This document shows positions 2,909 to 12,468 of a stretch of DNA of 64,000 bases, piece after piece. The position numbers were made by a program, and so were the translations under genes. Under the pieces are notes generated by a model that saw only the letters and a program-made list of their open reading frames with translations, ran no database searches and was not told the DNA's origin. Positions within the stretch are counted from its first letter, which is position 1; every line of letters begins with the position of its first letter. Source of the DNA: Planctomycetota bacterium (GTDB lineage Bacteria > Planctomycetota > JAJSAM01 > JAJVHW01); contig JAJFFG010000096.1 of assembly GCA_021776825.1 (NCBI GenBank), positions 55,876 through 119,875 of the forward strand, read 5' to 3'.

Positions 2909-5194
2909 ATGATCCGTGCCGCGAAGTTCGCCCTTGTCGCCGCTCTCGCTTTCCTCTGCATGCTGCCCGCTCCGGCGATGGCGCAGGATGGCGAGCCCGA
3001 CACGTCCGAGTACTTCCGCCTGAACCCGAAGGAGGACGGCTGGGAGATCAAGGATCTATTCCGCGCCATCTCCGAGGCTCGCGGGATCTCGATCCTCTTC
3101 GACGACAACAACGCCGTCATCAAGTCGAAGCGTGTCAACTTCATCGGCGAGCAGGTGATCCACCAGGATCGGCTCTTCCACTGGCTCCAGGCGGTGCTCT
3201 CGTACCACAGCCTCGTGCTCGTGCCGGTCGGCCCCGAGAGTCCCTCCGGCCAGCAGCAGTGGTTCGCTGTCGATCAGGCCAACGCAAACCTGACGTCGCG
3301 CCCCGTCTACATCCAAGAGAGCGAGATCCTCGACTTCGCCGACCGGGACGGCCTGTACGTGGTCACGTCGATGACGCTCGAGCACATCAAGGACACATCC
3401 CGCGTCCGCCAGGCGCTCTCGCAGCTCTCGACCAAGACGGCCGGCCTCGGCCGCATCAACGACATCCAGGGCAGTCGCGCGCTCATCGTCGGCGACTTCG
3501 CCCCGATCGTCGCCGCCATGAAGCAGCTCCTGAACGTGATGGATCAGCCGAACAGCACGATCGAGCCCCGCATGGAGGTGCTCCAGCTGTCCCACGCGGT
3601 CGCGTCGGAACTCGAGCCGATCCTCCAGGAGCTGATCGAGCAGAGCCTCAATCCGGCGCAGCCGCGTGGCCGCAACCAGCCGACGGCGATCGACGAGCCC
3701 GAGCCGAAGATCATCGCGGACCCGCGCCTCGACGCGCTGATCATCTACGCCGTCGATTCGCACATGAAGAAGATCAAGGAACTGATCCAGACGCTCGACG
3801 TCCCGAACACGAACTACCGCCAGCGCATCCACTTCCGGCCGCTGCGGCACACCGACGCGAGCGAGCTGGCCGACATCCTCCGTGAGTTGATCAGCGACAC
3901 CGGGATCGGCAGTACCCGCTCGAGCAGCCGCTCGTCGCGCAGCAACCGCCGTAGCCCGACCGGTGGCAACACGGCCGGCGGCGCGCAGAGTCCCTTCGGC
4001 GGCTCGTCCACGGAGGGCGAACCGGTCATCATCGCGGACACGCGCTCGAACAGCCTCATCATCCACGCCAGCCCGACGCAGTTCACGTCGATCGACGACC
4101 TCATCACGCGGCTCGACAACAGCCGCCCGCAGGTGCTGATCGAGACCGCGCTGGTCGAGCTCACCCTCTCCGATCAGCTCACGCTCGGCGTCGAACTGTT
4201 CTCCACGTCGGACGACGTGATCGTCGACACCGACAACGATGGCATCGGCGACGCGCTCACGAACGAGACCGACTTCTTCACCGCCTCGACATTCGGGCTC
4301 GGCAACACGATCACGCAGGACATCGGCGGCGTGCTCGTCCCGACGAACCGCAGCCCGTCCATCGGGACCGGCGTCACGGCGGGCATCTTCAAGGACGGTC
4401 GTCTGCCGCTGCTGCTGTCGGCCTTCCGCAGCTCGGGACGCGCGAAGATCCTGACCATGCCCAGCGTCGTGACGAACGACAATGAGCAGGCGCAGGTCAG
4501 CCTCAGCCGCACGACGTCGTTCCTGCAGAACATCAACGACGACAATGGCCGCAGCGTGGACAGTTTCCAGAGCATCACAGCCACGACGAACCTGACGATC
4601 TCGCCGACGATCTCGTCCGACAACTACCTGCGCCTGACGATCGACCAGTCGGTCGAGAACTTCGGCAACCGTCCCTCGCCCAACGCACCGCCCGATCAGG
4701 TCGCCCGTTCGATCAACACGAACGTGACGATCCCCGACCGCTACACGGTCGTCCTGGGTGGCCTCGTCCAGGAGGAGGAGCGCTCGTCAGTCTCGAAAGT
4801 CCCGTTCCTCGGCGACATCCCGGTCATTGGCTGGCTGTTCCGTCAGTCGGACGATCAGACGAACCCGCAGCACCTGTTCCTCTTCGTGACTCCGCGCATC
4901 CTTCGCGACACCGACAACTTCTCCGAGTACCACCGCCTGACCTGGGAGAAGAAACTCCTGCAGGACGACCTGTTCGGTAGCGAGGTGCGCTTCATCAACG
5001 GCAACTTCCGGGGACCCGATGTCTCCGAGAGCGCGACCGACAAGATCGATCGCCTGGAGCTGTCCGGAGAGCTCGACGCCCCGCGTCTGAGCGCGCCGTT
5101 GACCGACGCCGAGCGGATCGAGCAGGCGCGTCGCGCCGCGGGCACCGACGTGCGGCTGCCGCCGCCGCCGGAGCGTCCCGAGGACGCCAAGTAA
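2909..5194 (+). CDS. gspD: Type II secretion secretin GspD
   Basis: Signal peptide, repeated N-domains (IIADPRLDALII, IIADTRSNSLII), QVLIETALVEL and secretin C-domain (VVLGGLVQ…KVPFLGDIPVIGWLFR…LFLFVTPRIL). Confidence 0.92.
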   Translation: MIRAAKFALVAALAFLCMLPAPAMAQDGEPDTSEYFRLNPKEDGWEIKDLFRAISEARGISILFDDNNAVIKSKRVNFIGEQVIHQDRLFHWLQAVLSYHSLVLVPVGPESPSGQQQWFAVDQANANLTSRPVYIQESEILDFADRDGLYVVTSMTLEHIKDTSRVRQALSQLSTKTAGLGRINDIQGSRALIVGDFAPIVAAMKQLLNVMDQPNSTIEPRMEVLQLSHAVASELEPILQELIEQSLNPAQPRGRNQPTAIDEPEPKIIADPRLDALIIYAVDSHMKKIKELIQTLDVPNTNYRQRIHFRPLRHTDASELADILRELISDTGIGSTRSSSRSSRSNRRSPTGGNTAGGAQSPFGGSSTEGEPVIIADTRSNSLIIHASPTQFTSIDDLITRLDNSRPQVLIETALVELTLSDQLTLGVELFSTSDDVIVDTDNDGIGDALTNETDFFTASTFGLGNTITQDIGGVLVPTNRSPSIGTGVTAGIFKDGRLPLLLSAFRSSGRAKILTMPSVVTNDNEQAQVSLSRTTSFLQNINDDNGRSVDSFQSITATTNLTISPTISSDNYLRLTIDQSVENFGNRPSPNAPPDQVARSINTNVTIPDRYTVVLGGLVQEEERSSVSKVPFLGDIPVIGWLFRQSDDQTNPQHLFLFVTPRILRDTDNFSEYHRLTWEKKLLQDDLFGSEVRFINGNFRGPDVSESATDKIDRLELSGELDAPRLSAPLTDAERIEQARRAAGTDVRLPPPPERPEDAK

Positions 5195-5204
5195 GGGCCC
5201 GGCC

Positions 5205-6914
5205 ATGCGCGACGATCTGCGACGCATCCTGGTGGAACGCGACCTCCTCAGCGCCGAGCGCTTCGAGGAGTGCGTGCAGGAGGAGGTGCACACCGGCGAA
5301 CCGCTGGACCGCATCTTCCTCCAGAAGGGCTACCTCACGGAACTCGACTCCCTGCGCGTGTTCGCGGAGGTGCTCGGTCTGGCCCTGGAGGAGAACCTGA
5401 CGAAAATGCAGGTTCCGGTCGAGTTCGTCAACCAGGTGCCCGTGCACTTCGCACGCAGCTACAACGTGATCGCGATCGCCAGCGACGCGCACGGCATGCG
5501 TGTCGCCACGTGCAGCCCGTTCCAGACGAACGCGCTCGACGATCTGGCCACCATGCTGTCGATCGAGGTCGAGCCGGTGCTCGCGCAGCGCGTCGAGATC
5601 ACGAACCTCATCAACCACGCCTACAAGCGCAAGGCCGACGTGGTGGACGAGGCGCTCGACAACCTCGAAGACGGCGACATGATCGACATGGCCGCTGGTG
5701 TTGACGTCGCCGAGGACATCCTCGACGTCGCCAACAAGGCGCCGATCATCAAGTTGGTCAACATGATCCTGTTCCAGGCGCTCAAGATGCGCGCCTCGGA
5801 CGTGCATCTGCACCCGTACGAGGATCGACTCCAGGTGCGCAACCGGATCGACGGCATCCTGTACGACATGGAGGCGATCCCGAAGCGCGTCCAGGACGCC
5901 GTGATCAGCCGCATCAAGATCATGGGCAAGATGGACATCGCCGAGCGCCGTCTCCCGCAGGACGGCCGCGCGACCATCAAGCTCGGCGACGGGGAGGTCG
6001 ACGTTCGTATCTCGTCGGTCCCGACGTCGAACGGCGAGCGCATCGTCATGCGTCTGCTCGACATGACCGCCCGCGTGCTCCGCATCGAGGAGCTCGGTCT
6101 CGACGACGCGAACCTCGCGATGCTGCGGCGCTTCATCCGCTACACGCACGGCATCATCCTCGTCACGGGGCCGACCGGTTCCGGCAAGACGACGACGCTC
6201 TACGCAGTGCTCCAGCAGATCAACTCCGCCGAGAAGAACTGCATCACGATCGAAGACCCGATCGAGTACCACCTCGACGACATCAGCCAGATCCAGGTCA
6301 ACAACAAGAAGGGCCTCACCTTCGCGACCGGGTTGCGCAGTCTGATGCGTCAGGACCCCGACGTCCTGATGGTCGGTGAGATCCGCGATGAGGAGACGGC
6401 GAAGATCGCCACACAGGCCGCCCTGACCGGCCACCTCGTCTACTCCACGCTGCACACGAACGACGCAGCCGGCGCCGTCGCGCGCATGCTGAACTTCGAG
6501 GTCGAGCCCTATCTCGTCGCCTCGTCGGTGCTGGTCGTCATCGCCCAGCGCCTCGTCCGTCGCATCTGCCAGGAGTGCATCGAGAGCTTCGTCCCGACCG
6601 GCTCCGACCTGATCGAGCTGCAGGACATCGGTCTCGAGATCGCCGACCTGCCAGACGGTCTGCTCTACCGCGGTGCCGGCTGCGCCAACTGCTTCCAAAC
6701 CGGCTACGTCGACCGTTCCGCCATCTACGAGATCCTGCCGATCACCGAAGAGGTGAAGGAGCAGGTGATGGCGCACGAGTCCGCGTCCGTCATCAAGAAG
6801 GAGTCGATCAAGCGCGGCTGCCGCACGCTGCGCATGGACGGCGCCCGCAAGGTGAAGCAGGGCCTGACGACGGTCCAGGAGATCCTGCGCGTCACGCAGC
6901 TGGACATGTTCTGA
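5205..6914 (+). CDS. gspE: Type II secretion ATPase GspE/PilB
   Basis: ASDVHLHP, MDIAERRLPQDG, Walker A GPTGSGKTTT, TIEDPIEY, LMRQDPDVLMVGEIRD, QRLVRRICQEC Zn motif. Confidence 0.95.
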   Translation: MRDDLRRILVERDLLSAERFEECVQEEVHTGEPLDRIFLQKGYLTELDSLRVFAEVLGLALEENLTKMQVPVEFVNQVPVHFARSYNVIAIASDAHGMRVATCSPFQTNALDDLATMLSIEVEPVLAQRVEITNLINHAYKRKADVVDEALDNLEDGDMIDMAAGVDVAEDILDVANKAPIIKLVNMILFQALKMRASDVHLHPYEDRLQVRNRIDGILYDMEAIPKRVQDAVISRIKIMGKMDIAERRLPQDGRATIKLGDGEVDVRISSVPTSNGERIVMRLLDMTARVLRIEELGLDDANLAMLRRFIRYTHGIILVTGPTGSGKTTTLYAVLQQINSAEKNCITIEDPIEYHLDDISQIQVNNKKGLTFATGLRSLMRQDPDVLMVGEIRDEETAKIATQAALTGHLVYSTLHTNDAAGAVARMLNFEVEPYLVASSVLVVIAQRLVRRICQECIESFVPTGSDLIELQDIGLEIADLPDGLLYRGAGCANCFQTGYVDRSAIYEILPITEEVKEQVMAHESASVIKKESIKRGCRTLRMDGARKVKQGLTTVQEILRVTQLDMF

Positions 6915-6918
6915 TCCC

Positions 6919-8154
6919 ATGCCGGTCTATCAGTACAAGGGCTTCGATGCTGGCGGTGGTCCGCGCACCGGAATCGTGGATGCCGACAGCGCGCGCGAGG
7001 CGCGCTCTCAGCTCCGCGCGCTGCGCGTCCACGTCACGGATCTCGATCCCCTCGACACCCTGACCGTCAGCACGTCGCGCCGCTTTCTGCCCGCATTCCT
7101 GCAGCGGCGCCATCGCGAAGAAGTCACGATGCTCACGCGGCAGCTCGCGACCATGCTCCGGTCGGGCATTCCGCTCGCCTCGTGCCTGACCGCGTTGGTC
7201 GAACAGGCCGGTCACCCGGATCTCGAGATCGTGCTGCGCGACATCCGCGAGAAGGTGACGCAGGGCGCGAACTTCGCCGATGCGCTGGCGCACCACCCCG
7301 GCTACTTCGACGAGCTCTTCGCCAACATGGTCAAAGCCGGTGAGGCCGCCGGCAACCTGGACGTGATCCTCGGTCGCCTCGCGGACTTCAACCAGAAGCA
7401 GGACCGCATGCGGGCCAAGCTGAAGGCCTCGATGGCGTACCCGATGGTGCTCATCATCTTCGGCATGGTCGTCGTCGTCGTGCTGATGACCTTCGTCGTG
7501 CCCCGCATCCTGCGGCTGCTGAAGAAGAGCGGCAGCAAGAGCGGCGCCGACCTGCCGCTGCCCACCGAGATCCTCGTCACGGTGAGCGGCTTCGTCGGCA
7601 CCTACTGGCTGGTGCTGGTCGGGATGGTCGTCGCCGCGTGGGTGGTGTTCAAGCTGGCCATGCGCAACGAGGAGTTCCGCTACGGGTTCGACAAGTTCCG
7701 GCTGCGACTTCCGATCGTCGGCGACCTGTTCAAGAAGGTCAGCGTGTCCCGCTTCTGCGTGACGCTCTCGACCCTCTTGAAGAGCGGCATCCCGGCGCTG
7801 CAGGCGCTCAAGATCGTGCAGGGCATCGTCGGGAACATGGTGATGGCCCGTGTCGTCGGCGAGATCCACGACAAGATCGTCGAGGGCGCCGACATCTCCG
7901 CACCTGTGAAGAAGTCCGGCGTGTTCCCTCCGGTCGTCGGCTACATGATCGCCGTCGGCGAGCAGGCGGGCACGCTCGAGGAGATGCTCGAACGCGTCGC
8001 CGAGGCGTACGACGACGAGATCGAGATTACGTCGCAGAAGGTCACGTCGATGGTGGAGCCGATCCTCATCATCGCCCTGGCCCTGGTCATCGGCTTCATC
8101 GTCATCGCGATCCTGCTCCCGATCCTGCAAATCGGGCAGGCCGCGGGCGTCTGA
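6919..8154 (+). CDS. gspF: Type II secretion inner-membrane platform protein GspF
   Basis: TRQLATMLRSGIPL, AGEAAGNLD, AYP, GEQAGTLEEML, EPILII motifs. Confidence 0.95.
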   Translation: MPVYQYKGFDAGGGPRTGIVDADSAREARSQLRALRVHVTDLDPLDTLTVSTSRRFLPAFLQRRHREEVTMLTRQLATMLRSGIPLASCLTALVEQAGHPDLEIVLRDIREKVTQGANFADALAHHPGYFDELFANMVKAGEAAGNLDVILGRLADFNQKQDRMRAKLKASMAYPMVLIIFGMVVVVVLMTFVVPRILRLLKKSGSKSGADLPLPTEILVTVSGFVGTYWLVLVGMVVAAWVVFKLAMRNEEFRYGFDKFRLRLPIVGDLFKKVSVSRFCVTLSTLLKSGIPALQALKIVQGIVGNMVMARVVGEIHDKIVEGADISAPVKKSGVFPPVVGYMIAVGEQAGTLEEMLERVAEAYDDEIEITSQKVTSMVEPILIIALALVIGFIVIAILLPILQIGQAAGV

Positions 8155-8232
8155 GTCGTCCAATGTTCTAGGGCCGTACGATGGAGCCCGGCCGCAGGCC
8201 GGTCCCTCCGGCCCCACGAAGAGGAGCATGAG

Positions 8233-8655
8233 ATGCAGTCCCACCGCACCCGCAGTCAGCACGGTTTCTCGCTCATCGAGCTCATGGTCGTGATCACGAT
8301 CATCGGGCTCCTGGGCGGCATCGTCGGCGTCAACGTGATGGGCATGATGCGGAAGGCCAACATTGGCGCGACGAAGGACCAGATGCGCGAGATCGTGAAC
8401 GCCATCAACGTCTATCGGATCGAGAACCGCCGCCTGCCCGAGTCGCTCGATGACCTGGTCGGCGACGAGGACGCGCCGCTCATGTCCGAGGAGGTCCCGA
8501 CGGACTCCTGGGGCAACGAGTTCTTCTACGAGCCACAGGGCAGCCGCACGTACGAGTTGATCTCGTGGGGCGCCGACGGCGTCGAAGGCGGCGAGAACGA
8601 GGAAGAGGACATCGACCTCGACGCCATGCGTCGCAGGGACTCGGACAAGGAGTAG
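8233..8655 (+). CDS. gspG: Major pseudopilin GspG
   Basis: Class III signal HG|FSLIELMVVITIIG; DSWGNEFFYE and YELISWGADGVEGGE T2SSG motifs. Confidence 0.92.
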   Translation: MQSHRTRSQHGFSLIELMVVITIIGLLGGIVGVNVMGMMRKANIGATKDQMREIVNAINVYRIENRRLPESLDDLVGDEDAPLMSEEVPTDSWGNEFFYEPQGSRTYELISWGADGVEGGENEEEDIDLDAMRRRDSDKE

Positions 8656-9129
8656 CGGGAGGTTTCGATGACCTCCCGTTCACTCCGTCGACGCCGCGCC
8701 GCACACGGCTCCGCGCTCGCCTGGATCGTCGGGGTGATCGGAGTCGTCGGCGTGCTCACCGTGGCCATCGGTGCCAACGTTCGGCCTCAGATGGGCTGCG
8801 GCTGCGGCGGCCCGGGGTACGGGACGAAGGACCAGATGCGTGAGATCGTGATGGCGATCGACGTCTATCGGATCGAGAACCGCCGCCTGCCCGAGTCGCT
8901 CGACGACCTGGTCGGCTACGAGTATGCGCCGCTGATGTCCGACGAGGTCCCCACCGACTCGTGGGGCAACGAGTTCTTCTACGAGCCGCAGGGCAGCCGC
9001 ACGTACGAGCTGATCTCGTGGGGCGCTGACGGCGTCGAAGGCGGCGAGGACGAGGAAGCGGACATCGACCTCAACACCATGCGTCGCAAGGACACGGACA
9101 AGGAGTAGCGGAAGCTTCCGATGACATCC
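8371..9129 (+). repeat. 453-bp-period tandem duplication covering the gspG head domain, its stop codon and the next ATG
   Basis: 8371 aligns with 8824, stops 8655/9108 and ATGs 8668/9121 are all exactly 453 bp apart. Confidence 0.9.
8668..9108 (+). CDS. GspG paralog with altered N-terminal helix (no F+1/E+5) and CGCGG insertion
   Basis: C-terminal 94 aa are 83/94 identical to GspG; N-terminus HG|SALAWIVGVIG; GGAGG RBS. Confidence 0.8.
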   Translation: MTSRSLRRRRAAHGSALAWIVGVIGVVGVLTVAIGANVRPQMGCGCGGPGYGTKDQMREIVMAIDVYRIENRRLPESLDDLVGYEYAPLMSDEVPTDSWGNEFFYEPQGSRTYELISWGADGVEGGEDEEADIDLNTMRRKDTDKE

Positions 9130-9188
9130 GGCCCACCTCCACTCGATCTCACGAGCCTGCGCTCGCGACGCACGGACGACGCACGCTG

Positions 9189-9767
9189 ATGCGCCCGCGC
9201 CGAGCCCGATCGCCGCGCCGCTCGGGCTTCACGTTCATCGAGATGATGGTCGTCATCGCGATCCTCTCGTTGATGGCGGCGCTCGTCGTCGCCAACCTCG
9301 ACGGCGCCACCGCGCGCTCGCAGCTCTCCCGCTCCGGTCGGCACCTCGGCAACAAGCTGCTCTTCCTGCGCGACCTGGCGCTCGTGCAGGCGCGGCCGCT
9401 GAGCCTCGAGATCGACCTCGAGAACAGTCGCTGGCGCGAGGTCGACATCCCGAGCGAGAACGAGATCCCGGACGCCGGCGAGCGCGAGGAGCTGACGTTC
9501 TACGGCGAGTGGTTCGAGGTCGGCGACGGCGTCGTGCTCGACGAGATCGCGTTCGGGCGCAGCAACGCCCTCCTCGGCGACACGTTCATGGTCACGTTCA
9601 GCGAACGGGGCGAGTTGTTCCCCTCGGGCTTCGTGGCCTACCTGCGGCACCAGGACATCAACCCCGACGACGGCATGAGCATCGAGATCGCCGGGCTGAC
9701 CGGGGTCGTGACCTATCACCGCGGTCGCATCGAGGCGGAAGAGATCCGCGAGGAGCACGACTTCTGA
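9189..9767 (+). CDS. Minor pseudopilin, GspH/FimT-like
   Basis: RSG|FTFIEMMVVIAIL prepilin motif; operon position. Confidence 0.8.
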   Translation: MRPRRARSPRRSGFTFIEMMVVIAILSLMAALVVANLDGATARSQLSRSGRHLGNKLLFLRDLALVQARPLSLEIDLENSRWREVDIPSENEIPDAGEREELTFYGEWFEVGDGVVLDEIAFGRSNALLGDTFMVTFSERGELFPSGFVAYLRHQDINPDDGMSIEIAGLTGVVTYHRGRIEAEEIREEHDF

Positions 9768-10330
9768 TGCGCAACCGTTCCCTCTCCACAGCGCGCACGG
9801 CGGGTTTCACGCTCCTCGAGTTGCTCGCGGCCATCGCGATCTTCGGGATCATGGCGGTCTCCGTGATCGACCACATCGACGTGGTGACGACGAGGGCGCT
9901 CGACTCCGTCCGCTCCCGCGAGCTGCGCGTCCTGGCCGACTTTCGACTGGGCCACGTGACCATCTTCGAACGCGAGTTCGACGACATCTTTGTCGGCCAG
10001 GACTTCGACGACCTGGACGAGGACCAGTGGGAGAACTGGGAGTGGGATCTCGACATCCGCGATGTCGTGGTCTTCGGCACGTCGAGCGACGAGCAGGCGG
10101 AGTACCTCTTCGGTGAGCCCGAGGAAGCCGACGAGATCAACAACCCGGATCAGCCCGGTCAGCCCGCCGCGAACACCGGTGAGACGCAGTTCCTACGCGA
10201 GCTCACTCTGACCGTGCGCGGACCGGACATTGAAGGCGAGTCGGACTCGGTCACGATCGTCACGTTCCTGCCTCTCGTCGATCACGGCGCGTCCGGTCCC
10301 CCGGGACAGCAGAACCCGGGGGGCAACTGA
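9767..10330 (+). CDS. Minor pseudopilin, GspI-like
   Basis: AG|FTLLELLAAIAIFG prepilin motif; ATG overlaps previous TGA. Confidence 0.78.
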   Translation: MRNRSLSTARTAGFTLLELLAAIAIFGIMAVSVIDHIDVVTTRALDSVRSRELRVLADFRLGHVTIFEREFDDIFVGQDFDDLDEDQWENWEWDLDIRDVVVFGTSSDEQAEYLFGEPEEADEINNPDQPGQPAANTGETQFLRELTLTVRGPDIEGESDSVTIVTFLPLVDHGASGPPGQQNPGGN

Positions 10331-10331
10331 G

Positions 10332-11096
10332 ATGCAACGACATCGCACGCTCTCCGGATCGCGATCCCAGCGCGGGCTGACGGTCCTCGAGGTGCTGCTG
10401 GCCTCGACCATGCTGCTGATGTTCCTCTCCTCGCTCTTCGGTCTCGTGTGGTCGATCGCCGAGTTCCGCGACCAGATCGAGCAGGAGGTGCGTCCCTACG
10501 ACATGGCGCCGCCGGTTCTCGCGCTGGTGGTCCAGGATCTGAACAACGTCCTCGTGGAGCCGTACAAGGACCGCGACGCGTTCAAGGGCGAGGGCGACAC
10601 GATCGGCGGCGAGGACACGACGAAGCTCGACTTCGTCACGGCGGTCTCGTCACGCAGCGCGGTCGAGATCGACGACGAGTTCGTGAAGAGCGCGATTTGC
10701 GAGATCGGCTACCGCGTACGCCGCAGCGAGGTGTACGACGACCTCTTCGCCCTCTATCGGCGCGAGGACTTCGGCGTCGACGAGGAACCGTTCGAGGGCG
10801 GCAAGTACTACAAGCTGGCCGACCGCATCGCCTCGTTCCGCATCGACTTCTACGAAGAGGATCCGGGCAAGCCGGAGGGCGACGAGGCGAAGGGTCTGCA
10901 GGACTGGGACGCCAAGGAGCAGGGCGGACTGCCGTACGGCTGTCGCATCACGCTGGTGGTCGTCCCGCCGTACGAGACGGACGAGGACGGCAACGCGCTC
11001 GAGGAGCTGCAGGAGATCACGTTCGTGCGCTACGTGGCGTTCCCGCAGCGCTTCGACGTCGACGCCGGCGGATCGTCCGCCCCCGCGGGGCGGTAG
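10332..11096 (+). CDS. Minor pseudopilin, GspJ-like
   Basis: RG|LTVLEVLLAS prepilin motif; EIGYRV…LYRRED…LADRIASFRIDFY typical of GspJ-like proteins. Confidence 0.78.
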   Translation: MQRHRTLSGSRSQRGLTVLEVLLASTMLLMFLSSLFGLVWSIAEFRDQIEQEVRPYDMAPPVLALVVQDLNNVLVEPYKDRDAFKGEGDTIGGEDTTKLDFVTAVSSRSAVEIDDEFVKSAICEIGYRVRRSEVYDDLFALYRREDFGVDEEPFEGGKYYKLADRIASFRIDFYEEDPGKPEGDEAKGLQDWDAKEQGGLPYGCRITLVVVPPYETDEDGNALEELQEITFVRYVAFPQRFDVDAGGSSAPAGR

Positions 11097-11164: not shown

Positions 11165-12355
11165 CTAGGCCATCTCGGGCATCGACGCGTCGAGTCGACG
11201 ACGAGCCTCTTCGAGGGCCCGCTCCATCTCCGTCTCGCCAGGCAGGTTGATGGCGTGTCCCGGGGCGCTGCGGATGTCGTCGATCGTGCGGACCAGATCC
11301 GCGCCGGACTCCTCGAGTCGCAGCACGAGCGGGTTCGCCTCGTCCGCGAGGATGATGAGGTCGTCGTCGCGACTCGTTCGGCAGCGGATGACCGGCACCT
11401 CCATCGGCCGGCCGTCGACCCGGACGACGCTCACGTCCTCGCCGATCTTCTCCAGCGCCACCGGCTCGGGATCACGACGGCGATGGATGATGACCTCGCT
11501 CGCACCGCACTCGACCAGGTCGCGATACACGCCGCGGCCGATCCACGGCGCCGTGGCCTCGGTGCGGCAGCGTTCGCGGTTCGCGAACCAGGCGTCATGG
11601 ATGGCACTCTGGTCGAGGTCGCGCAGATGACGTAGACCGTGGACACCGCCCGTGTAGAGCAGCACAGCCTCCCGCTTCCCCAACGCCACGACGTGGAACA
11701 CCATCGGGTCCGGCTCACCCTCCTCACCGGCCTCCTGATCGATCGAATTCACGCGATACACGAGGCGGGAGCCGGGACGGACGGCGAGCACTGTGCCGAG
11801 CGACTCGATCGGCTCGCGAACGGTGACCGCGGGCTTGAAGCGACGCCGCACGGCCCGCAGTTCAACGGTGCTGCGCAGGCCATCCTCCATCGAGCGCAGC
11901 ATGTTCGCAATCGAGTCGCGGCGAGACGGGTCGGTCGTGCCGTCCTCGAGTTCGCGGCGCAGTGCTTCGACCTTGGCTTCGAGAACCGCGCGCTGCTGGC
12001 CAGGGAAGTCGCGACCGCGAACGAGCACGTTGAGGCTGTCCTCGACGAGAAACGGATCGACCTCCTCCGGTGCCTGCTCGACCGGTGCGCGATGCATCTC
12101 GCTCTGCCCCTGCACGTCGCGCAGTGTCTGCAGACCCGCACCCTCGAGATACCGCACGATCCGACCGCGCGTCCACTGGACGCCCAGGGCGCCGCACTGG
12201 GTGGTGCGCGTCACGTGCCCAGCGTTGCCGAGCGAGTCACGCCCCGGCCGCTCGTCCTCTTTGACGTCGACCCGCAGCACATCCGCATCGTCGATCCAGT
12301 ACGGGACGAGGCGACCCGGCCAGTCGCGGGGATGGTTCTCGGTCGTGCTCGGCAT
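11165..12355 (-). CDS. Hypothetical cytoplasmic protein (396 aa)
   Basis: Long ORF with coding-like GC3; GGAGG RBS before ATG 12355; central coiled coil (VLEAKVEALRRELE). Confidence 0.7.
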   Translation of the reverse strand: MPSTTENHPRDWPGRLVPYWIDDADVLRVDVKEDERPGRDSLGNAGHVTRTTQCGALGVQWTRGRIVRYLEGAGLQTLRDVQGQSEMHRAPVEQAPEEVDPFLVEDSLNVLVRGRDFPGQQRAVLEAKVEALRRELEDGTTDPSRRDSIANMLRSMEDGLRSTVELRAVRRRFKPAVTVREPIESLGTVLAVRPGSRLVYRVNSIDQEAGEEGEPDPMVFHVVALGKREAVLLYTGGVHGLRHLRDLDQSAIHDAWFANRERCRTEATAPWIGRGVYRDLVECGASEVIIHRRRDPEPVALEKIGEDVSVVRVDGRPMEVPVIRCRTSRDDDLIILADEANPLVLRLEESGADLVRTIDDIRSAPGHAINLPGETEMERALEEARRRLDASMPEMA

Positions 12356-12468
12356 GGAGGTCCTCCGGCTCCCCCATCGGAATGTGCGGCGCATGGGCTT
12401 GATCCGAGCCTGGTCCCCGTCGCGGTGAGAGACCCCGTTGCTGGGTGTCCCGCGGGTACCATGACGCG

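Follow-up and report, generated by a model that had tools for sequence, protein, structure and literature searches.

Pilins and pseudopilins are built on a conserved N-terminal assembly helix that carries a variable head. In the 64,000-nucleotide stretch of planctomycetal DNA analysed here (the window), the gene directly behind the major pseudopilin gene gspG, called G' below, presents the reverse of this pattern, and one that is recurrent: the assembly helix has been discarded, a plain anchor has been kept, apparently under selection, and the head has been held close to that of the working subunit, apparently through gene conversion. This raises the question of what kind of protein G' is. We favour the answer, with a probability of about 0.6, that G', a product of lineage-specific tandem duplication of gspG, has turned into a single-pass inner-membrane protein. 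An earlier note on this DNA had described a duplicated major pseudopilin with its head kept and its helix rewritten, and this description is supported by the repeat, the heads and the helix comparison.

The duplicated gspG unit

The gene cluster reads gspD-E-F-G-H-I-J, in which G' comes after G and ahead of the minor pseudopilins H-I-J, and no terminator or promoter was found between G, G' and H. The features of the locus are the following.

8224..8676, + strand: tandem repeat unit 1, 453 nt, made up of gspG, preceded by 9 nt of 5'UTR and followed by a 12-nt spacer and ATGACCTCC
8233..8655, + strand: gspG, canonical major pseudopilin, 140 aa, with leader MQSHRTRSQHG, then FSLIE
8657..8662, + strand: Shine-Dalgarno-like GGGAGG, 5 nt ahead of the G' ATG (sequence reading)
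8668..9108, + strand: G', 146 aa, non-prepilin N-terminus followed by a GspG head, sharing the reading frame of gspG
8668..8709, + strand: G' leader MTSRSLRRRRAAHG, strongly basic, Gly at -1 retained
8677..9129, + strand: tandem repeat unit 2, 453 nt, with a diverged N-terminal part (8677-8819) and a near-identical part (8820-9129)
8710..8781, + strand: predicted G' transmembrane helix SALAWIVGVIGVVGVLTVAIGANV, zero charged residues, Glu+5 replaced by Trp, mean Kyte-Doolittle hydrophobicity 2.0
8782..8823, + strand: G' linker RPQMGCGCGGPGYG, rich in Gly, Pro and Cys, with GGCTGC GGCTGC, in place of the middle of helix alpha1
8820..9129, + strand: homogenised tract of head, stop codon, spacer and ATGACxTCC; counterpart 8367-8676
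9121..9189, + strand: 22-codon ORF MTSGPPPLDLTSLRSRRTDDAR*, the original spacer after gspG
9189..9767, + strand: gspH-like minor pseudopilin, SG followed by FTFIE; PF07963; TIGR01708 48 bits

One 453-bp unit (8224-8676) was duplicated; it begins with 9 nt of leader, takes in the entire gspG and the 12-nt spacer, and runs 9 nt into the small downstream ORF. The exact 453-bp period that had been reported for this duplication was recovered as a direct repeat of 8367-8666 and 8820-9119, which are spaced by exactly 453 and 91% identical, and the orphan ATG at 9121 (ATGACATCC), echoing the G' start (ATGACCTCC), indeed indicates where the repeat ends on its 3' side. The duplication junction supplied G' with a ready start codon, a ribosome-binding site and six extra codons. 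Net length changes in G' amount to three codons gained after NV (RPQ) and three lost in the leader; as these cancel, G' is exactly G plus the six junction codons (146 versus 140 aa). The TGA of the 22-codon ORF overlaps the gspH ATG (TGATG), and its peptide is free of coding selection, since its GC content is equal at all codon positions (0.68/0.68/0.68). In the closest relative an ATGAC... mini-ORF likewise follows the gspG stop codon, a weak hint at an ancestral spacer.

In profile searches gspG matches PF08334 (65 bits), PF07963, the GFxxxE model TIGR02532 and, just under the cut-off of 88.85, TIGR01710 (87.9 bits). PF08334 is the sole domain of G' (56 bits, cut-off 21), which scores 49.9 bits against TIGR01710, below the equivalog cut-off of 88.85, and gives no match to PF07963 or TIGR02532 at a threshold as loose as E <= 0.1; matches were obtained for each of G, H and I.

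Derivation and probable maintenance of the G' N-terminus

Where G reads HG followed by FSLIE, G' reads HG followed by SALAW, with Phe+1 and Glu+5 gone as the earlier note had stated; position +1 is now Ser rather than the usual Phe or Met, and +5 is Trp rather than Glu. The short basic leader still closes on a Gly at -1 (MTSRSLRRRRAAHG before Ser, aligned to MQSHRTRSQHG before Phe). Among the residues said to stay in register, I10, G14, L16, G21, N23 and V24 do so and can be extended with L3 and V9, whereas the match at M28 hinges on the alignment chosen. The best ungapped match between the two helices (48 of 81 nt at offset 444) is equalled at no more than about 5-20 of the 13.7 million positions in the genome, and the N-terminal protein alignment of G' with G has a z-score of 8.3, its score being attained in none of 500 shuffles, compared to 5.9 with I, 3.5 with H and at most 2.7 with other anchored paralogues. 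By these alignments, the similarity of the G' helix to the G helix is beyond chance and points to derivation from G's own helix.

Other sources of the N-terminus were considered and rejected. Fusion of a gspH N-terminus to the G head, by a duplication extending from the middle of G to the middle of H, would require 8653-8825 to align with 9106-9330, which it fails to do; a gspH-derived helix is contradicted by the closer likeness to G than to H or I; and for a segment imported from elsewhere in the genome, blastn, tblastn and an ungapped scan of 13.7 million positions returned zero donors. A Sec or Tat signal peptide was likewise discarded, the profile search giving zero matches to Tat-signal or other leader families and the length of the predicted helix (24 residues, that of an anchor) weighing against it; the sole non-GspG profile match of G' was a sub-threshold one to PspM (E = 0.05).

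Behind the helix, the CGCGGPG segment that had been taken for an insertion is present, mostly as a codon-for-codon replacement of MMRKANIGA. It contains the GGCTGC GGCTGC repeat, which looks like the result of replication slippage, and the two Cys of the CxC (Cys44 and Cys46), through which the earlier note had thought disulfide or metal control possible, fall within this low-complexity, slippage-like linker. Read from the alignment, G' has lost the class III signal and the polymerisation helix, its mid-helix has been turned into a Gly/Pro/Cys linker, and the segment has nevertheless stayed hydrophobic.

It is unlikely, though worth serious attention, that G' is a young redundant duplicate heading for loss without any function of its own, its head conserved only through recent copying or conversion and its N-terminus decaying, or disabled owing to the harm done by a surplus subunit able to assemble. 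The earlier note had regarded uniqueness to this genome and a neutrally evolving N-terminus as signs of such a fate. Unique it is: G' is a singleton in all collections searched, with no orthologue among 5.8 billion proteins or across 61 related genomes (none of the same genus), and the sister loci G002, G006 and G007 carry no G' between G and H. The N-terminal composition has moved towards the genomic, non-coding background (GC2 0.63 versus about 0.37 in real genes, GC3 0.83 versus 0.93), and the slippage-like linker also fits decay. In the head, maximum-likelihood branch lengths are 0.13 for G' and 0 for G, with most replacements on the G' branch; a manual count polarised by outgroup states assigns about 7-8 to G' and 2-3 to G, so that dN/dS of the G' head is about 0.4-0.6, and neutrality of this head since its last homogenisation is not rejected by branch lengths or replacement counts. 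An intact ORF carries little weight in a genome of 70% GC. The N-terminus, however, does not look neutral. In simulations with an equal number of substitutions, which take the ungapped alignment to the G helix as true ancestry, neutral drift reached the observed mean hydrophobicity in at most 0.2% of cases (P <= 0.002) and left no charged residue in 2% (P = 0.02), suggesting that anchor hydrophobicity has been maintained under selection. Moreover, the G' indels are in frame and cancel exactly, a strong ribosome-binding site is retained before G' and has decayed from GGGAGG to GGAAGC in the copy 3' of it (sequence reading), and the anchored end-state arose repeatedly in other lineages, where it has persisted in one clade of at least 18 diverged sequences.

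The helix-head boundary and the fit to the pseudopilus

The heads are as near to identical as had been claimed (83 of 94 aa and 259 of 282 coding nt, 92%), with dS 0.21, dN 0.056 and dN/dS 0.27 between G and G' from 8367/8820 to the unit end, and 17 of 21 nt are identical in the non-coding part of the homogenised tract. This identity has an abrupt 5' edge, at 26-29 per 30 nt inside the repeat versus 6-13 upstream of 8367. Nucleotide differences number 29 of 69 in the helix core versus 27 of 303 in the remaining unit (P = 5e-10), and synonymous differences at conserved codons 5 of 10 in the helix versus 11 of 83 in the head (P = 0.012); synonymous and non-coding sites are homogenised in one part only. 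From these counts the helix appears to be older than the head, or to have been driven. The sharp boundary, whose implication the earlier note had missed, argues for gene conversion rather than gradual rewriting, and we infer that the helix half diverged first, that gspG sequence subsequently replaced the 3' 310 nt, and that divergence has since reached some 0.2 substitutions per neutral site. Because neutral drift rarely keeps a transmembrane helix and the synonymous sites of the helix are the more diverged, we favour an older duplicate with a tethered head that was later re-homogenised.

Head replacement can be seen directly in a related protein, P0011, a chimera whose anchor is that of the orphan paralogue of the family (z = 10-12.6) and whose head is 100% identical at the amino acid level to a canonical G, despite 11 synonymous differences. 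The G/G' pair of genome G010 likewise has a sharp 5' edge, with a core that is 100% identical, and on the tree the analogous pairs in G010, G040 and P0011/P0007 group by genome; no sister genome searched carries G'. G and G' resemble known gene-conversion systems such as tuf and pilE/pilS of Neisseria in that same-genome paralogues are more alike than orthologues, with a sharp identity boundary here and mosaic identity in the relative G010. In Neisseria, conversion diversifies the pilin head and the N-terminal helix stays fixed, whereas in G/G' conversion would keep the head alike and it is the helix that has changed. Concerted evolution of bacterial paralogues through gene conversion is the subject of a survey (PMC6053082).

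A single recent duplication without conversion, in which a burst of positive selection rewrote the G' helix and purifying selection held the head, has the merit that one event suffices, and it would accommodate the exact 453-bp period with its cancelling indels as well as the partial constraint on the G' head (dN/dS 0.27 overall). We consider it quite unlikely, as the helix is more diverged at synonymous sites of conserved codons too and would need about three times the neutral divergence of the remaining unit (JC distance of about 0.6 versus dS 0.21), or about six times if the whole helix change is placed on the G' branch, and as the G010 mosaic and the P0011 chimera show that conversion into anchored paralogues takes place in this group.

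Structural comparison bears on whether G' could still assemble. The best Foldseek matches of the G' head are the Vibrio EpsG structures 3gn9, 4lw9 and 3fu1 (probability 1.0). The AF2 model of G has a single continuous helix over residues 14-65 (mean pLDDT 85) and that of G' has helices at 14-37 and 49-71, separated by a break at 38-48 (pLDDT < 50 at 42-48); the long continuous alpha1 joining membrane segment to head is thus predicted for G and not for G'. With GspG/PulG/EpsG/XcpT, G' shares the PF08334 head, the EpsG fold, the GADG..GG loop, its place in a gspD-E-F-G-H-I-J cluster and its origin from gspG by tandem duplication, but it differs from them by Ser+1/Trp+5 for Phe+1/Glu+5, the missing class III signal motif, the sub-cut-off TIGR01710 score and an alpha1 interrupted by the Gly/Pro/Cys linker.

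Cleavage by prepilin peptidase could still occur, since the Gly at -1 is kept and a hydrophobic stretch follows it, and a prepilin peptidase gene (Peptidase_A24) lies on contig C11. Gly-1 is critical for prepilin processing and Glu5 dispensable for cleavage, and pilins mutated at Glu5 can co-assemble with wild-type subunits (PMC4471445). G' might accordingly remain a pseudopilin that is cut after Gly14 and enters the filament in few copies as first, last or occasional subunit, altering its length or tip, a minor-subunit role that its position between G and H-I-J would suit. We judge this distinctly improbable: the GFxxxE and N_methyl models do not match, 17 of the 23 core helix residues are replaced whereas the G helix is identical across family members, an 11-residue Gly/Pro linker interrupts the predicted helix at precisely the stretch through which subunits pack in the core of the filament, and several analogous proteins in other lineages carry a Sec-type or lipoprotein-type leader in that position instead. 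An artefactual origin of the tandem copy, through misassembly or through the merging of two strain variants into a single contig, is very remote even for a metagenome-assembled draft of 133 contigs, as the copies are 8% different, one of them has a unique in-frame N-terminal segment of 140 nt, the locus is interior to a 133-kb contig, and comparable pairs occur in independent assemblies.

A non-polymerising, membrane-tethered GspG head, a possibility that the earlier note had put forward, is the most likely product, given the missing GFxxxE domain, the break of alpha1 in the model and the hydrophobicity that was kept. The leader is presumably cytoplasmic because it is strongly basic, and a tandem duplicate of gspG turned single-pass protein would then lie N-in/C-out in the inner membrane, its GspG head exposed in the periplasm at the end of a flexible tether. 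Its helix would be unable to pack into the pseudopilus core, hence a head mimic encoded in the same operon rather than a filament subunit. As such a mimic, G' may for instance compete for the partners of the GspG head, act as a brake on them or serve as their docking adaptor.

Anchored GspG heads in other Planctomycetota and a possible role

GspG heads on non-prepilin anchors recur across Planctomycetota, which had escaped the earlier note. By manual reading, about 20 of the 101 GspG-head ORFs in a census of 61 genomes have a non-prepilin anchor, and on the tree the anchored state requires at least six independent origins. They adjoin gspG in G010 and in G040, the latter with an F-G-G'-H arrangement in a genome without close relatives for comparison. 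Some are conserved families, among them the clade of at least 18 diverged sequences; these lie outside T2SS clusters, whereas G' stands in tandem with gspG. The group takes in P0013-type anchored pairs, the orphan paralogue (P0011, G001, G002), Sec and lipoprotein forms and large fusions. Like G', its members (about 126-163 aa) consist of a short leader and either one hydrophobic helix or a signal peptide, joined by a linker of 10-15 residues to alpha1C plus head.

G' does not descend from these proteins, its anchor having a z-score of 8.3 to its own gspG and at most 2.7 to theirs. The same values speak against orthology with the orphan anchored paralogue (P0011, G001:C4, G002:C18), of which the genome of G' has no copy; nor is there a GspG-like gene beside the best 2Fe-2S neighbour homologue on contig C110. 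Literature searches on pseudopilins in Planctomycetes and on T2SSG/PF08334 found no publication describing non-prepilin GspG-head proteins.

Tentatively, and with considerable doubt, we propose that tethered GspG heads form an unrecognised accessory part of the planctomycetal T2SS, acting as a brake on pseudopilus assembly, as its primer or as a docking adaptor. Duplicated major pseudopilins would then repeatedly be turned from filament subunits into fixed head mimics, their heads kept in step by gene conversion because the same partners must be bound, and in the tandem G' such a protein would have been invented anew, in place of the orphan anchored paralogue of sister genera. If tethered heads of this kind do act in secretion, they would represent a new kind of T2SS accessory factor in a phylum whose secretion systems are short of several canonical parts, and would offer a natural head-only, non-polymerising reagent for probing what binds the GspG head. 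Apart from this, the locus may serve as a compact and clear example of how a tandem duplicate neofunctionalises, with a junction, the source of the start codon, that is readable base by base.

The planctomycetal T2SS cluster is without gspC, K, L and M. As the earlier note had remarked, no gspK follows gspJ, the next gene being on the other strand and matching no family. The suggestion that G' stands in for GspK nevertheless finds no support. GspK, which caps the GspI-J-K tip complex, is about 300 aa long and has a large alpha-domain inserted, and tip minor pseudopilins of its class lack Glu+5. G' shares this missing Glu+5, but with 146 aa and PF08334 only it is a GspG head alone, without a GspK-type domain. 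Furthermore, gspK is absent beside the cluster in all eight family genomes, and the sister loci G002, G006 and G007 do without G'. PF03934 matches in this genome are located on other contigs, and the PF03934 model also matches genomes without a T2SS.

Duplication anatomy of the second G-like gene

Behind rpsU and rpiB lies a compact set of type II secretion genes, all on the plus strand, in a 6.9-Mb draft MAG of 133 contigs:

start of window: rpsU and rpiB
about 2909-5194, plus strand: gspD
5205-6914, plus strand: gspE
6919-8154, plus strand: gspF
8233-8655, plus strand: gspG (G)
8668-9108, plus strand: second G-like gene (G')
9121-9189, plus strand: small ORF of 22 codons, now between G' and gspH
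9189-9767, plus strand: gspH
9767-10330, plus strand: gspI-like gene
about 10332-11096, plus strand: gspJ-like gene, the last pseudopilin gene (254 aa, RG/LTVLE)
11165-12394, minus strand: first gene beyond the cluster (409 aa)

The last two matched no Pfam or NCBIfam family. The cluster holds none of gspC, K, L, M and O, in line with the earlier note's remark that no gspK accompanies gspJ, and the prepilin peptidase gene is located on a different contig.

A repeat search confirmed the 453-bp period described in the earlier note, the direct repeats 8367-8666 and 8820-9119 being 91% identical at a spacing of exactly 453. Their 5' edge is abrupt, since matches drop from 26-29 per 30 nt within the repeat to 6-13 upstream of 8367/8820, and the 3' similarity spans the stop codon, a 12-nt spacer and ATGAC(C/A)TCC, ending at 8676/9129. 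The simplest reading would be tandem duplication of a single 453-nt unit (8224-8676 to 8677-9129). As the unit ends 9 nt inside the small ORF formerly 3' of gspG, the junction put the GGGAGG ribosome-binding site and ATG of this ORF upstream of the copied gspG. The junction ATG lies 6 codons before the duplicated start and in its frame, and G' (146 aa) shares the reading frame of G (140 aa) and is exactly 6 codons longer. The heads are identical at 83/94 aa, as counted previously, and at 259/282 nt (NG86: dS 0.21, dN 0.056, dN/dS 0.27); in the non-coding tail of the unit 4/21 positions differ, close to the synonymous rate.

The TGA of the small ORF overlaps the gspH ATG (TGATG), the usual layout of translational coupling; the ORF is not coding-like in composition, and in the closest relative (locus L003) a short ATGAC... 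ORF likewise directly follows the gspG stop. Only TAG and four codons (8653-8670) separate gspG and G' in the same frame, and read-through of TAG would fuse both proteins. The genome encodes one more GspG-type head, the third (C58:10576-10863, minus strand), as the C-terminus of a longer ORF that the contig end truncates; the portion present lacks a hydrophobic segment.

Descent, age and selection of the rewritten N-terminus

G starts with MQSHRTRSQHG/FSLIELMVVITIIGLLGGIVGVNV and G' with MTSRSLRRRRAAHG/SALAWIVGVIGVVGVLTVAIGANV, then RPQMGCGCGGPGYG. G' matches PF08334 (GspG head), matches neither of the prepilin profiles PF07963 and TIGR02532, and scores under the GspG equivalog cut-off. By the models that define them, it belongs neither to the class III signal family nor to the GspG equivalog, yet it is a derivative of GspG.

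By its alignments, the N-terminal segment is still a descendant of a G-type helix. It matches the G helix at 48/81 nt without gaps (offset 444), which only about 5-20 of 13.7 million genome positions equal; protein alignment against shuffles gives z = 8.3 with G, compared with 5.9 with I, 3.5 with H and no more than 2.7 with other lineages' anchors, and no other donor was found anywhere in the genome. Codon changes in G' amount to +3 after NV and -3 in the leader. The CGCGGPG segment, previously read as inserted, is present, but really replaces MMRKANIGA, and the linker holds a slippage-like GGCTGC GGCTGC repeat. Because the G helix is identical in 8/9 recovered family orthologues (P0002-P0009; P0010 differs slightly), essentially all 17/23 core replacements fall on the G' branch.

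Differences are concentrated in the helix core (29/69 nt versus 27/303 in the remainder of the unit, P = 5e-10), also at synonymous sites of amino-acid-conserved codons (helix 5/10 versus head 11/83, P = 0.012), which makes the helix half the older of the two. This favours an older duplication, after which gene conversion from gspG would have overwritten the 3' 310 nt; it is less plausible that the helix, with its synonymous sites, changed at about 3-6 times the neutral rate.

The main evolutionary rival is that G' is a decaying duplicate, for which the earlier note expected a neutrally evolving N-terminus. In the selection tests, which rest on about 50 codons, the G helix was evolved neutrally to the observed number of differences: at an equilibrium GC of 0.7 mean hydrophobicity was 0.55, with the observed 2.0 reached in 0.2% and no charged residue in 2.0% of all simulated sequences, and at 0.9 these values were 0.28, 0% and 2.3%. 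Since hydrophobicity is so rarely kept, the anchor character of G' was held by selection while pilin-specific residues were lost. A counter-signal, however, is that GC2 and GC3 of the segment are shifted towards background composition. Most of the head replacements are assigned to G' (ML branch lengths 0.13 versus 0 for G; about 7-8 versus 2-3 counted from outgroup states) and the G' head is thus more relaxed than that of G, its neutrality since the last homogenisation not being rejected (23 differences).

Recurrence of anchored GspG heads

Among 5.8 billion clustered proteins G' stands alone (nearest non-self protein 55% identical), and the search of relatives proposed earlier found no G' between F, G and H in the orthologous loci read of the same family (G007, G002, G006). 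The architecture is not unique among Planctomycetota. In genome G010, of the same order, the arrangement is F-G'-HNH endonuclease-G-H, and G' there combines a non-prepilin anchor with a head that shares 79% identity with the genome's own G; the pair displays an equally sharp 5' edge, mosaic identity and a 100%-identical core, and the nuclease gene between the copies could promote conversion. This HNH-endonuclease-like ORF of about 1.4 kb, within locus L038 (G010:C40:14300-18000, minus strand) between anchored G' and gspG, has CxxC...HH motifs and is DUF222-like. In G040, from a different family, the genes run F-G-G'-H and the heads share 49% identity. The conserved P0013-type clade comprises 18 anchored heads in a two-gene module outside T2SS clusters. 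At L127 (9001-10377) and L128 (343-1157), this module encodes a protein of about 145 aa starting MLGLGTLRKDAPL... and one of about 126 aa starting MKRR..., next to aldehyde dehydrogenase, RND pump or toxin-antitoxin genes, with at least 18 diverged members. On the ML tree of heads the anchored state takes 7 changes, at least 6 forced by well-supported branches.

Sister genera G001 and G002 have an orphan anchored GspG-head paralogue (L143, G001:C4:1848554-1848907; L144, G002:C18:101045-101437), whose conserved, Cys-containing anchor is common to the metagenomic protein P0011 (z = 10-12.6). The P0011 head has the same amino-acid sequence (100%) as the canonical G P0007, with 11 synonymous differences, and shares just 48% identity with the orphan-type head; P0011 is a chimera in which head replacement is seen directly. 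Similarity of its 1095-nt Logan contig (L032) to L033/L034 runs 23 nt beyond the stop, into the gspH start, to the contig end, and the flanks of L032, L143 and L144 are not syntenic.

Across 61 Planctomycetota genomes, 101 GspG-head ORFs were classified: 54 with the strict prepilin pattern, 14 within larger proteins (including L046 and L158) or without an upstream hydrophobic segment, and 33 with a hydrophobic segment and the pattern unmatched; by reading, about 13 of these 33 appear to be ordinary prepilins (Ala, Ser or Arg at -1), while about 20 bear a non-prepilin anchor, a signal peptide or a lipoprotein leader. In the literature searched, no GspG head with a non-prepilin anchor was described.

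Predicted topology and possible role of G'

Structures predicted from one common 32-sequence alignment give G a single continuous helix (residues 14-65, mean pLDDT 85) and G' (mean pLDDT 74) helices at 14-37 and 49-71, the second followed by the beta-sheet head; residues 38-48 between them are non-helical, with pLDDT under 50 for 42-48. The top PDB matches of the G' model, at probability 1.0, are three structures of Vibrio major pseudopilins (3gn9, 4lw9 and 3fu1). The basic leader with five Arg predicts an N-in, C-out orientation.

The duplication anatomy, the lost class III motif, the kept hydrophobic helix and GspG head, and the recurrence are established. G' would be a single-pass inner-membrane protein carrying a GspG head on a flexible tether, its helix unable to pack in the filament core, and may serve in its own operon as a G-head mimic, with G itself, H-I-J, the secretin or substrate as candidate partners. 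The main mechanistic rival is that G' may be cleaved and rarely incorporated: Gly-1 is critical for prepilin processing, and this rival stands because Glu5, although required for homopolymerisation, is not needed for cleavage and Glu5 mutants can co-assemble with wild-type subunits (PMC4471445). The suggestion that G' takes the place of GspK finds no support, and G' is not GspK-like.

Ahead of F(T/S)L(I/V/L)E, position -1 in many planctomycetal GspG-type prepilins is Ala, Ser or Arg instead of Gly (L017, L030, L031, L041, L044, L142, L146, L147, L149, L151, L157, L184, L187), which would not be expected were Gly-1 a strict requirement for cleavage. Lipoprotein-like leaders precede some heads (LLMSC/G, VVAGC/Y and LSSLAC/D in L155, L186 and L036), and a frameshift of the draft assembly may have disrupted the one in the second ORF of L036 (about 1169-1600).
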